64,000 bases of DNA from Eledone cirrhosa (taxonomy: Eukaryota), in assembly GCA_964016885.1 (NCBI GenBank), contig OZ024743.1, positions 92,008,001 through 92,072,000 on the forward strand, in the 5' to 3' direction. The position numbers and the translations under genes are program-made. Of the stretch, positions 11,995 to 53,867 are shown piece by piece. The first letter of the stretch is position 1. Each line of letters opens with the position of its first letter. The notes under the pieces were generated by a model. The model was not told the origin of the DNA. It saw only the letters and a program-made list of their open reading frames with translations, and ran no database searches.

Positions 11995-12602
11995 TGGTGG
12001 CTGCCAACTCGTTTTCGAGTACGGCCACTACTTTATATCCATGTAGGAGAACCCCTACCGATGCGCTGAACGAGTGTGACTTTTTAGTCCAGCCAGCGAC
12101 TTGAAAACTCTGGTACAAACACTACACTTGTGACAATTACTGACACATAGTGCTGGGCCCATGGTACCATGTGACGACAAGTGCAGAGAGATCTCCAGAT
12201 ATAAAGCAATGCCTGTGCCGTGAAGCTTTTATAGTGAGCAAAGGCACTGCACAAAGCCAGTCCCACTATCTTAACCAAGATGATATTCACCAAAAAGAAG
12301 AACAAGTCAACATCATTGGATACCATCAGGGTTGCAGGTGTTATATCAGAGTTTTCCTTCTCCTAGAATTCTGCCTTGACAAAGGCTAAGGGGTCATCCC
12401 TCCCGGTGATTTTGGATGGCCATTGACTCTTAAGAGCTCCTTTTCCCTTTGACAGGTTTTGTTTTTAGTCCTGCAGGATGTCCAAAGTCACCCTCCTCAC
12501 CAATAAACCTTGGTGGGGTTGCCAGTTTAGTCGCCAACGACCCGACCATGGGACAGGTTGTACTGGGATACATGTTACCAGTAGCACTAACTGGTGACCT
12601 GA
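11995..12602 (-). mobile_element. Bipartite non-autonomous RTE derivative (5'UTR + 3' end), copy 1
   Basis: The 5' ~170 nt align with the RTE 5' end at 16550-16723. The 3' end encodes [13 protein letters not shown] (RTE has CKSLAGVKSHIRAS) and shares GAGTT(G/T)GCAGCCA(C/T)CA. Flanked by (TACA)n on both sides. Confidence 0.8.
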
Positions 12603-12750
12603 CATACATACATACATACATACATACATACATACATACATACATACATACATACATACACACAAACATACATACATACATACATACATACATACATACA
12701 TACATACATACATACATACATACATACATACATACACACAAACATACATA

Positions 12751-15700
12751 ATTGATGGCTGCAAACTCTGCCAAGAGTATTGCAATCGCTTGTCAGATTC
12801 AGGTGTGTGACGCTCGGATATGGCTTTTCACGCCCGCTAGAGACTTGCACTCCTTCACACACTGACGCCAACTATGGATCTCCCTGGCCTCAGGTCTTGC
12901 ATCAGGTTGCCTGTGAACCCTCACAACACCGTGGAGATCATAGTTCACTAGTTCTCTCTGAATATGGCTGTGACTGTGGCTTCTGAGACCAGATTTGCTC
13001 AAGCAAATTGTTCCACACTCAGGGCACTTCACTTCAATGGAGACACCAATTGTTTCAAGAGATACACCAGGGCATTGCTTACGCACATCCCTTTTGATCT
13101 TCTCGTGCTCTATGCGTCTGTCCTCAAAATTATGGACCCATCGTTCACCATTCCACGCCAAGTTTCTCTTTCAAGAGTTTCTATCTCCCAGTCAGCCATC
13201 ATCAAACCAATTCTTTTCAATAAGTCCTTTACACAATCCTTGAATCGGAGCCTTGGCTCGTGAGGTGGTCTCTTACCCTCACAAAGCTGGCCATACAAAA
13301 GTTGTTTTGGGATTCGATCATCCTCCATTCTGCAGAGGAGTCCGATCCATCGCAAACGCCGTTGGTGGATGATACTTTCAATGCTGGGAAACTTCTCTCA
13401 AGGACCTCAACATCACTCACATGCATCTGCCACTTGATACCAAGCATCTTTCTGAGACACTGCTGGTGAAACCGTTCCAGTCTGTGGATATGCCGTTTGT
13501 AGGCAACCCATGTCTCACATGCATACAGCAAAGCTGACATTACACATGCAGCAGACACTCTCACCTTGGTCCTCGTTGTGATTCCTCGCCTGCACCAAAG
13601 ACGGTCGTTGAGCCTTCCAAATGACTCACTTGCTTTACTAACACGTAGACCAACTTCTGCATCCAGAGAGTAGGTCATACTCAGAGTACTCCCCAAATAC
13701 ACAAATGTGTCAGCAGCCTTCAGCTTTTGACCGTATACGTGTATGGAGGGTTCATTGAAAACTTTATCCGGAGCAGGTTGGTACATGACGACAGTCTTCT
13801 TCAGACTGATTGTCAGTCCCAAAGCACTGCACGCATTGGAAAAAGAATCCATAAGGTGTTGCATGTCACTCTGGGGGTGTGCAAAGAGATCACAATCATC
13901 TACATATAAAAATTCTCTGATCAAGGTACTCACTACCTTAGTGTTGGCAGTGAGACGCCTAATGTTAAACAGCTTGCCGGAAGTGCGATATCTGAGATAG
14001 ATACTGTGTTGACAATCCTTGAAGGCCATGAAAAACACCATCGCGAAATACAAGGCAAACAAAGTTGGTGCAGGTATATCACCCTGCTTGACACCATTTT
14101 CAACCGAGATTGGCTCAGACAGTTTACCTCCAACATTCACCCATGCCTGCATGTCATCGTGGAAGAGTTTCAGAATGTTCACAAACTTTTCAGGACAGCC
14201 CAATCTCTCTAAAATAACCCACAAAGCCTTCCGATTAACGGTGTCAAATGCCTTGGTCAGATCGACAAAAACTTGGTATAAGTCCATGCGCTGCTCAATG
14301 CATTTCTCTTGAAGTTGTTTGGCCGAGAAAATCATGTCAACAGTGCCTCTGCCATTCCTAAAGCCACATTGGGACTCAGGAAGTACCTCAACAGCAATGT
14401 GATGTATCAATCTGTCCAACAATATCCTGCACAAGATCTTCCCAGCCACAGATAGCAGTGAAATACCTCTGTAGTTGCCACAGTCATCTTTGGCTCCATT
14501 TCCTTTGTAAAGTACCACCATCAGTGCGTCTTTCCAATCCTGTGGCACATCTTCTTCATTCCAAACATTCACAAAGAGATCAGTGAGGCGGTTTAAGAAG
14601 TTATCACCAGCACACTTGAAAATCTCGGCACTCAGTCCATCCATTCCAGGTGACTTGCCGCTGTTTAATTTGGCAATGGCCTTCGCCACTTCATCAAATG
14701 AAGGAGGATCAGCCATTGCCAGCTTTGTAGGTCTGGATGGAATCGACCGGATGAACTTATCATCAATTTCTGATGGTCTGTTGAGAAGCTCATCAAAGTG
14801 GTCATGCCACCTGATAAGGATTTCCTTCGGATCTCTGAGCAATTCCTTGCCGTCCCCGGAGCGAAGTGGTGATATTTGTGAATCGGTCGGACCATACACC
14901 TCCCTGAGCAGACTGTATAGGAGCTTTGCATCATGTCTATCTGAGGCCTTCTTGATTTCATCAGCCTTTTGGCTCCACCAGGTATCCTGCTTGGCTCTCA
15001 ATCGATGTTGCACACGTGCCTTGATCTGCCTGAAGGTCCGGTCACTCCTGTCAGAACGTGTCTCACAACAATGATGTCAGCACTTTTTGTTTCTCTTCAA
15101 GCAAGGTCTGTATCACTGGATCATTTTCATCGAACCAGTCTTTATGCTTTCTATTGGTATGACCCTAAACTCCAGCACTAACATCATAGACGGGTTTCTT
15201 CAATGATTCCCAAGTGTTTTCACATTCCATGGACTCAAGGGACCTCGACAGCTCAGCTCTGACTTTCTCTGTTTTCAGACGAGCCACGTTTAGTTGTTTT
15301 GGAAGTGCAACCTTCTTCCCCCTTACTTTAGGTTTCATAACAAATTGAAATTTGGCGCGCACCAGACGATGATCAGTCCAACATTCCGTGCCTCGCAATA
15401 CACGAACCGATGTGATATCCCTGATATCACGTTTTCTCGTTAAAACGAAGTCAATAAAGTGCCACTTCTTGGAACCTGGATGCATCCAAGTTGTCTTATA
15501 TTTGTCTTTCTGCTGAAAGAGCGTGTTCCCAATAAGATCCATCTCAGTGCACATCTGCAACAGAAGTAGGCCATTGTTATTGCACTTACCTACTCCATGC
15601 CTGCCCATCACACTCCAAGCTTCCCAGTCATTACCAACACGTGCATTAAAATCACCAAGGATGACAATCTTGTCTGCATAAGGTATACCATGGATGACGT

Positions 15701-52100: not shown

Positions 52101-53357
52101 TTTGTGTTGTTGTTTGTGTCTGTGGTTGTGTGTTGGTGATTGGAATTTGGGATTGTTTTGGTGTTGGTGTTGGTAAAAGTACTTTTTTTTAAAGATTTGT
52201 TTGTAAAGGGCAGGAGGCTTTTATGTGTGATGTGCTTGCACATCGAAAACAGTGTGGCTTTCTGCCCCCAGTTATGATGTTGATGTAGTTCTGGTTGTCG
52301 GCCAGCACTCTTTCGGGGATTTGGGAAATTCTTTCTGGTGTCATTTGTGTCAGAATTTCCAAATTTGTGCCTGCCCACCTTTGTCTGGTCGATTTCCTGA
52401 CCGAAAGAATTGTATCACTTTCTGGCTCTATAAAACTGGCCAAGATCCACCGAATGTTGATGTTTGGTGGTATATTATTTATTTTAATTTTTTTAGTTCT
52501 TTTTCCCATGTAAGTAGGGGAAAAGGTGTGTGTTTTTGTAATGACTGGTGTAACAGAATGCTTTTGTGCGAGGGCTTCTCTTATAAAAAGTACCGAAACA
52601 CTTCCATATAGTCTGGCCCTCTGCATAAAATCAATATCCGGCAGAGCCTCTTTCAGGGTTGTTTCAATTTCTCCTTGACTGAGGAATACCGGTTTTTTCG
52701 TTTGATTTGAAACAGTTCTGAAGGTTACTGTCCTTCGAACTGTTTCTCATTTAATTTGCAAGGGTGAGTTTATATGAAATCCACCCTTTTCTTCAAAGGT
52801 TATGAATTGTTTTGCATCGGTCAACATTTGTTTGGAGTTGCTTATGTTGATGTGTTTGTACTCTGTTTTATTTATCACAGTCTGTGCGAATGTTTTTTCA
52901 ATTTTGTTGTTGTTGGTTTTATCGTTTGTAGTTGTGTCAATTGTTTCAATTTCTGCATTTTCTGTATTTTTTTGTGTCTGTTGTGGGCTGTTATTTTCAT
53001 CTTTTGTTGTGTAAATATCCATTTCTTTACGAAACGAAGTTTTGTTGTTGTTCGTTTCCATATATACTTCTATGGAAATAGAGGGAGACATAACGCTTAT
53101 ATCTGTCTCTTTCCTTCTCTTCTCGCAGTCTAGCGTTCGTTGTAAGTCACACATTGTTAAAGTTACGAAAATTTTTAAAACTTGTCAATTTTTTTAAATT
53201 AAATTTCCGCCCCTGTGGGGCGAAAACTGAGATTACCACGCAGCCGACAATTCAGCCTGGGTGTTAATCTATCAAACAATATAACATTTTACACAATGAA
53301 TTCTGTTTTTGTATGGAAAATTTTACAAAAACTTACCAGCGATCTACCACACGTCCG
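49141..53357 (-). mobile_element. Second Tx1/L1-clade LINE, 5'-complete, decayed
   Basis: ORF1 pieces 53154-52189 contain CFRCASTSHIKASC. ORF2 starts at 51634 (NVRGL, VYAPT, GDWN, SDHK, IRQGCPLS, GGLGMP, CPRC..H). (GATA)n at both ends. Confidence 0.9.
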
Positions 53358-53867
53358 ATAGATATATAGATAGATAGATAGATAGATAGATAGATAGATA
53401 GATAGATAGATAGATAGATAGATAGATATATTAGAGAGAGAGAGAGAGAGAGAGAGAGAGAGAAAGAGTGTGATACAAACGCTCATACAATATTATTATG
53501 GTTAATTTTCAATAGCGGCGTACCTTAAAAGACTTACAACCCTAGGAAGTAGATGGTAGAGATATAGAGATCGTATCTTGTGTGACAATCTGGAAATAAA
53601 AGACATTCTATGATTAATGTCTTTATACAGTGACATTTTTGTTTTGTTTGGGTTTTCTTTGGTTTGTGTTTTTGTTTTTGTTTTGTTTGTTTGTTTATTG
53701 TTGTTGTTTTTTTGTATTTTACGAATTTGAAAAACATTCCACGTTACAAACAAAAAGGGAAAAATAACATCAAACAAATATTCCAATATGAAAGATGTAC
53801 ACTCTAGGAATTGTTATTTTGTATTTAATATATTTTATTTCTCATTAATATTATAATGAAACGAGGT

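Follow-up and report, generated by a model that had tools for sequence, protein, structure and literature searches.

Our analysis of 64,000 nucleotides of Eledone cirrhosa contig OZ024743.1 (positions 92,008,001 to 92,072,000; below, the window, repeat-rich eukaryotic DNA with 0 N, whose own coordinates are used throughout) revealed that three groups of retrotransposons lacking long terminal repeats (non-LTR), which we call Tx1-like, RTE-type and Dong-like, adjoin at both ends a microsatellite whose motif is specific to the family and whose orientation is fixed on the element strand. This pattern is real, and we consider it probable that each lineage inserts, in one orientation, into a tetranucleotide microsatellite that already existed. 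Junctions were scored for motif and orientation on the element strand, with mismatches tolerated, for 11 copies, namely the ten listed in an earlier sequence-only reading and a newly found Dong-like stub (Dong3). The repeat of the element's own family was present at 22/22 junctions: (TATC)n at 8/8 for the Tx1-like copies, (TATG)n at 8/8 for the RTE family (one RTE and three short non-autonomous derivatives, the minis) and (CATA)n at 6/6 for the Dong-like copies. At 3000 random non-element positions, taken in both directions, the same score was reached by 0.4% for TATC/GATA and 2.4% for TATG/CATA. These counts bear out the sequence-only reading in its claims that all four Tx1-like copies have GATA-type repeats at both ends and that the RTE, its minis and the Dong-like copies have (TACA)n at both ends. 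The 3' flank of one Tx1-like copy, T4, also scores for TATG because a TACA array comes after its GATA array. The elements and their arrays are as follows.

11334-11995, unstranded: degenerate CA/TACA array with pure (TACA)n at its end; 3' flank of mini1.
11996-12601, minus: mini1, a 606-bp non-autonomous RTE derivative, with an RTE-like 5' untranslated region (UTR) fused to a C-terminal zinc-finger remnant and the 3' end.
12602-12750, unstranded: (TACA)n common to the mini1 5' end and the RTE 3' end.
12751-16720, minus: full-length but broken RTE-type element; single open reading frame (ORF) with apurinic-like endonuclease (APE), reverse transcriptase (RT) and C2H2 finger (Pfam), split by stops and frameshifts.
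16729-16821, unstranded: (TACA)n between the 5' ends of RTE and Dong1, head to head; the 3' tail of neither.
16822-17694, plus: Dong1, a 5'-truncated element of the restriction-like endonuclease (RLE) type; CCHC knuckle, PD-(D/E)xK-like domain, 3' UTR.
17695-17762, unstranded: (TACA)n common to the 3' ends of Dong1 and mini2, tail to tail.
17763-18368, minus: mini2, 97% identical to mini1.
18375-18463, unstranded: (TACA)n adjoining the mini2 5' end alone.
20742-20773, unstranded: impure (GATA)n, holding one copy of the T1 17-bp duplication (20757-20773).
20775-20823, minus: T1, a 49-bp Tx1-like 3' stub, 92% identical to the T4 3' end.
20824-20850, unstranded: impure (GATA)n with the second copy of the T1 duplication (20825-20841).
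20853-21463, minus: T2, a 5'-truncated Tx1-like copy; end of ORF2 and 3' UTR.
21464-21486, unstranded: impure (GATA)n between T2 and T3.
21489-26551, minus: T3, near-full-length Tx1-like; ORF1 with CCHC, APE, internal deletion across the RT core.
26562-26640, unstranded: (GATA)n, 79 bp, adjoining the T3 5' end alone, then (GA)n.
27085-27430, minus: mini3, a 5'-truncated mini, 98% identical to mini1.
27431-27445, unstranded: 15-bp (TACA)n between the truncated 5' ends of mini3 and Dong2.
27446-27748, plus: Dong2, 5'-truncated, 85% identical to Dong1; then (TACA)n at 27753-27834.
49084-49132, unstranded: (GATA)n at the T4 3' end; before it an unoccupied (TACA)n compound array, 48868-49078.
49141-53359, minus: T4, near-full-length Tx1-like, internally deleted; 70-77% identical to T3 over long matches.
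53366-53428, unstranded: (GATA)n, 63 bp, adjoining the T4 5' end alone, then (AG)n.
58873-58897, plus: Dong3, a Dong-like 3' stub of about 25 bp with (CATA)n on both sides; absent from the sequence-only reading, whose range it lies outside.

A family of short interspersed elements (SINEs), abundant in the window, about 190 bp long and sometimes tandem (60034-60428), provided 18 matches in 5024-61572 as a control. Only 2/36 of its ends lie within 15 bp of any array, where the background is 13%, and 0/18 copies are near GATA or TACA. These SINEs bear on an explanation in which the pattern is an artifact of assembly, with microsatellites common to several places serving as false joins, or arose by local chance where repeats are abundant. 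The copies are indeed stacked at five loci, and arrays are dense; against this, the junctions are short-range, motif and strand are specific to each family, SINEs of the same region show nothing of the kind, and the assembly has no gaps of N here. Mis-joining could touch the stacking but not the junction rule, and we find this explanation hardly credible.

Evidence that the repeat came first is clearest at T1. A 17-bp stretch that includes an impure repeat unit has exactly two copies in the window, and these flank T1; the impure unit itself occurs four times, all in the junction arrays of T1, T2 and T3. A duplication labelled by such a marker points to insertion into an existing array, and the array very likely predates the T1 insertion. 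The truncated copies bear on the same matter. In target-primed reverse transcription, the 5' junction adjoins the far end of the duplicated target, and a repeat at a truncated 5' end therefore requires repeat across the whole duplication. Of the 11 copies, six are 5'-truncated and still adjoin repeat. Further, six arrays adjoin 5' ends alone (joint P ~8e-10, before correction for the after-the-fact choice of motif). These arrays, the truncated copies and the T1 duplication uphold the earlier argument that 3' tailing alone is insufficient. They also weigh on the idea that the 5' repeats belong to the transcript, whether element-encoded or read-through, while the 3' repeats are tails and the insertion sites ordinary. 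Five apparently full-length copies, and a 5' boundary that is the same in three RTE-family copies, would suit such an origin; the six truncated copies that still adjoin repeat, the mini3/Dong2 and Dong3 arrays, which are no element's tail, and the T1 duplication would not, and we regard it as very improbable.

The clade names of the window elements are taken from architecture rather than from named references. The Tx1-like label rests on architecture and an L1-group RT. The copies have the two ORFs of Tx1, with a CCHC knuckle in ORF1 and with APE, RT and a C-terminal zinc motif in ORF2; Pfam recovered Exo_endo_phos, RVT_1, zf-RVT and zf-CCHC on pieces of T3 and T4, some below the curated cut-off. 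A relative (P0001) that is 64-66% identical to the window ORF2 matches L1 ORF2p at E 1e-50 vs 1e-24 for R2. Among named proteins, one from the octopod Argonauta hians (GAB1597330.1; 44-60% identity to the window pieces) is nearest to ORF2, and none of the 120 matches listed for ORF2 is a named Tx1 reference. T1, T2 and T3 form a stack within GATA arrays (20775-26551), T4 is solitary, and the target is kept by copies only 70-81% identical over their long matches. Both free 5' arrays (26562-26722 and 53366-53463) are compound (GATA)n(GA)n, which reads as (TC)n and then (TATC)n on the element strand and recalls the (TC)n target of Kibi.

The Dong-like copies retain CCHC, RLE and 3' UTR only, without RT and without the N-terminus, where R4/Dong elements have a Myb/SANT-like domain. 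In translation they show the C-terminal CCHC and PD-(D/E)xK RLE motifs of R4/Dong elements, with weak matches to zf-RVT and VRR_NUC. Among eight long relatives, which bear no clade names, APE was matched in 0/8 and RVT_1 in 7/8, and for one of them (P0290) the matches in the Protein Data Bank (PDB) are R2 proteins only. Dong3 was located through its 3' end alone, by a 23-nt sequence that is identical to the Dong2 3' end and occurs at these two places only, and its 5' side is also (CATA)n. The (TAA)n target typical of Dong was found at none of these copies, where 6/6 junctions are (CATA)n, and we name them Dong-like because of this difference.

The RTE-type element has the organization of its clade, with a single ORF of ~1050-1100 aa that carries APE and RT and a short 3' UTR that ends in a microsatellite; the assignment presumes that this architecture, together with the motifs we associate with RTE, identifies the clade. 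The window copy is 42-52% identical to an intact 1064-aa relative over aa 1-1009, and a tree of 29 rows that includes it has poorly filled locus rows, resolves little and holds 0 clade-named references. Among themselves the minis show 96-98% identity, and their identity to the RTE 5' UTR is 71%. The sequence-only reading described them as derivatives of the RTE; the 71% indicates that they come from a related (sister) RTE family, not from this RTE copy, and one target is kept despite the 71% identity. In the 5' UTRs of the RTE and the minis (16500-16722, 12400-12601 and 18170-18368), the initial 210 nt are more conserved than the remainder, and the three copies have a common 5' boundary. Compared with shuffles, the RTE 5' UTR shows no better folding (z 0.6), and by eye it contains no canonical ribozyme like that of hepatitis delta virus; Rfam at the gathering threshold gave 0 matches in the window, and an E-value scan of 11900-21000 gave repeat and hairpin noise alone. 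Searches of PDB with both APE domains, and with the Dong RLE, yielded nothing useful, and the ESM Atlas yielded unnamed eukaryotic clusters alone. The mini1/RTE array contains two copies of an impure unit (12657-12670 and 12733-12750), and no element separates them.

In two clusters the RTE family and the Dong-like copies alternate. Cluster A (11996-18368) reads array, mini1 (minus), array, RTE (minus), array, Dong1 (plus), array, mini2 (minus), array, with all arrays (TACA)n, and cluster B (27085-27748) reads mini3 (minus), a 15-bp array, Dong2 (plus). Copies of both groups occupy common arrays and are set apart by strand alone. The number of niches therefore falls short of one per clade: four groups, the fourth being the Penelope-like elements (PLEs) described below, use three repeats (GATA, TACA and TA). 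This contradicts the first half of what the sequence-only reading had proposed, namely a separate niche, a putative safe harbour, for each clade, with each element possibly expanding its own target array. In favor of expansion, 238 of the 281 bp in perfect GATA-class arrays of at least 12 bp (6/9 arrays) adjoin Tx1-like copies, and each insertion adds a duplication and a tail. The longest GATA arrays of the Tx1-like copies are, however, on the 5' side (79 and 63 bp, compared with 12-49 bp on the 3' side). Long TACA arrays also occur without elements (61996-62448 and 63765-63827), and any growth beyond duplication and tails is conjectural. Taken whole, that proposal is improbable. Perfect TACA-class arrays in the window are clustered, and 44/49 read CATA on the plus strand.

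The proposed explanation is target-primed reverse transcription into an existing array, which would split the array and partly duplicate it around the copy. The endonuclease would nick one strand of the repeat, and the repeat tail of the RNA would pair with the freed end to prime synthesis; a second nick some 12-17 bp away would then duplicate repeat, and the 5' junction would also fall in repeat. Each insertion would leave new target at both ends, which would favor tandem stacks. For the Tx1-like and Dong-like elements, target choice is likely protein-directed, by analogy with known relatives. The RTE probably combines a preference in nicking with pairing of the tail. On the (TACA)n duplex common to both groups, the RTE enzyme would nick one strand and the Dong-like enzyme the other. 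Whether an RTE-clade family is truly sequence-specific for (TATG)n, having converged with an RLE-type family on this duplex from the other strand, is a tentative possibility to which we give somewhat less than an even chance.

A different account dispenses with protein-level recognition, at least for the RTE. Nicking would be broad, the tail would base-pair with short matching sites, and the duplicated copies would grow by slippage in a microsatellite-rich genome. A tail-target pairing model for RTEs has been published (PMC6007223; here and below, statements from the literature are limited to the sections of each source that were covered), and pairing alone would yield a fixed orientation. The relatives outside the window are pertinent here. 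One scan of genome contigs gave 38 loci with RT relatives of the RTE, of which 12 of the closest were checked for flanks. Their tails vary (TG, GA, CAA and CAT), and at one locus the flank equals the element's own tail: in L008 (CAXXBX010000097.1, 3991-7517; 49% identity), a relative whose truncation falls within the endonuclease is immediately flanked by (TG)n on either side, and the 11.6-kb locus contains no other TG array. This truncated copy also favors insertion into existing arrays and, if an RTE-clade family is indeed sequence-specific, suggests that the target is reprogrammed by the repeat of the RNA tail. However, the microhomologies published for animals amount to 1-2 bases, and tail-like targets seldom flank Bov-B copies (PMC6007223, PMC13295347), whereas here the entire duplicated stretch and as much as 90 bp past it is repeat. 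We consider an account by pairing and slippage unlikely, though far from negligible. L008 also holds an unrelated insert of ~320 bp near 6695-7018, and the 38 loci (L001-L038), which lie in prokaryotic genome bins with non-LTR reverse transcriptase contigs and long microsatellites, resemble eukaryotic contamination.

Several observations weigh against insertion into pre-existing, family-specific arrays, or narrow its basis. The 22 junctions represent 16 arrays at only five loci and are not independent, since T1-T3, mini1/RTE/Dong1/mini2 and mini3/Dong2 are tandem; the tandem clustering in TACA arrays is itself not significant (P ~0.11). The evidence comes from one 64-kb window. Pure arrays conceal most duplications, and a 17-bp match flanking Dong2 was rejected as strong evidence of one, its 17-mer occurring 11 times in the window. 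For the RTE family, the 8/8 junctions come from two loci only, and the truncated evidence is one copy (mini3), whose 15-bp array is shared with Dong2. RTEs have, moreover, been stated to be not sequence-specific (PMC2887409, PMC13295347). Among the 12 loci examined, L001, L006 and L027 have an intact 3' end but no long array, and L016 lacks an array at its breaks; both ends could be scored for L008 only, which the 29-row tree does not place as sister to the RTE of the window, and one end for L003, L005, L007 and L015. In a file of Octopus bimaculoides RTE insertions called with MELT (PMC9115989), a family whose relation to the window RTE is unestablished, 4/211 records have a target-site duplication (TSD) that contains TACATA, and 10/211, including those four, have one that is TA- or TACA-like. 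In part 2 of the file, 13/17 rows have no TSD call, and short reads handle such sites poorly. The portion of the file covered gives no support for TACA specificity of that family.

Targeting of microsatellites is known for Tx1, Dong, Waldo and PLEs, and the precedents named in the sequence-only reading for Tx1 and R4/Dong are real (PMC4494074, PMC3812793, PMC7998251); the motifs and the RTE case are new, from few loci. Tx1 families target (TC)n, (TTC)n, (TTCC)n and (TTTC)n (PMC4494074). Like Kibi, Koshi and crocodilian Tx1, the Tx1-like copies are L1-group elements of APE type in TC-containing microsatellites, but their target is (TATC)n and their host a mollusc (kinship of lineages is left aside in this comparison). 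Dong targets (TAA)n in most insects, molluscs and cnidarians (PMC3812793, PMC7998251), and the Dong-like family resembles Dong/R4 in its RT, CCHC and C-terminal RLE without APE in relatives, and in having a microsatellite target, which differs in being (CATA)n. With RTE/Bov-B elements and their SINEs, the RTE family shares a single APE/RT ORF, a microsatellite 3' tail and short non-autonomous derivatives, yet those elements rarely have tail-like targets at their flanks, and the window has (TATG)n at 8/8 junctions (PMC6007223, PMC2887409, PMC13295347). Waldo, an APE-type element of the R1 clade, inserts in ACAY repeats, the same ACAT class, but belongs to another clade and to insect hosts (PMC3812793). 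In octopus, RTE-2_OV is likewise an RTE whose ORF includes a C2H2 finger and is followed by a microsatellite, and the same clades, Dong included, are active; this likeness is by description, as the repeat unit and 5' flanks are not stated in the sections covered (PMC9115989). The active-family table of another study lists RTE, Dong-R4 and Tx1 families in octopus genomes (PMC13282606), and the word 'target' occurs 0 times in that paper. In the sources covered, families that target (TATC)n, (CATA)n or (TATG)n are not described, nor are a target-specific RTE or cephalopod cases of such targeting, although Repbase Reports and Kojima and Fujiwara 2004 may list them; the covered sections of PMC4640811, PMC3774820 and bioRxiv 10.64898/2026.07.22.740005 contain no report of the same three-motif targeting either. 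For Kojima's criterion, by which more than 20% of flanks genome-wide have the target, the figure here is the in-window one, 11/11 copies.

If true genome-wide, the pattern would provide new target motifs for Tx1-like and Dong-like elements and the first microsatellite-specific RTE. The site-specific APE clades named in PMC13295347 are Tx1 and R1 only, and an RTE truly specific for (TATG)n would make a third. Two unrelated enzymes on one repeat, on opposite strands, would then offer a natural test of endonuclease against RNA tail pairing. Further, such targeting would help explain how RTE, Dong-R4 and Tx1 stay active at high copy number in octopus genomes.

The (TA)n niche is occupied by non-coding pieces, some of them PLE-like:

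18818-19012, minus: copy of a hairpin family, (TA)n-flanked; PLE origin unproven.
35402-35579, 40365-40453, 44924-45095, 45212-45317 and 63167-63351: the other copies of the hairpin family.
19091-19495, unstranded: PLE-like element with inverted repeats; its long-stem hammerhead match (19268-19145, minus) lies next to (TA)n.
20045-20216, plus: minimal hammerhead element of type I whose end is at (TA)n; belongs to the family of the inverted pair at 44409-44874.
44409-44874, unstranded: two PLE-like units in inverted orientation that carry hammerheads, placed around and next to (TA)n.

A strict motif scan for type I hammerheads, which PLEs carry in the pseudo-LTR, found six vs 0 in 20 shuffles, and a relaxed scan eight vs two in total over 20 shuffles; together the scans give nine distinct sites. 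At 5/9 of these, (TA)n lies 49-55 nt from the cleavage site on its 3' side, where the background is 10% within 60 nt on either side; the five cleavage sites (8423, 9570, 19145, 20168 and 44524) belong to different families and have near-constant spacing. The permutation P for this association is 0.005 for the six strict matches and 0.03 for four families, and the remaining four hammerheads lie 125-259 nt from an array of at least 20 bp. The six-copy hairpin family has (TA)n at 11/12 ends and (TG)n at one. The earlier claim that PLE-like elements adjoin (TA)n is borne out at these ends, but the PLE label is backed by hammerheads for some of the (TA)n-flanked pieces and not for the hairpin family, for which it is unproven because the family lacks both coding sequence and a complete hammerhead (by eye, it seems to have just a 3' half). 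Outside the bodies of the long interspersed elements, a Pfam scan of 121 extra ORFs of at least 55 aa revealed no PLE RT or GIY-YIG coding sequence, which leaves the PLE-like pieces as non-coding remnants, and no host gene, the weak matches being low-complexity noise. The (TA)n bias of PLEs is known (PMC8557442), and the hammerhead-bearing ends join (TA)n as known PLEs do; inverted structures, type I hammerheads and ends at (TA)n are all shared with them, and the window remnants, being non-coding, add nothing new.

Other repeats were noted in passing. Inverted repeats of ~210 bp (41031-41236 and 41849-42066) enclose a long (TG)n, with (TA)n outside both, and may be a miniature inverted-repeat transposable element or a PLE-like element. 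Short degenerate TTAGGG-like tracts occur at 30781-30913, 20306-20329 and 43885-43905, the latter two within an inverted duplicate (20262-20525 and 43687-43949) that is 98% identical. Finally, a degenerate GGCT/GTAT/GTCT satellite of 1.4 kb (46123-47540) yields long low-complexity ORFs.

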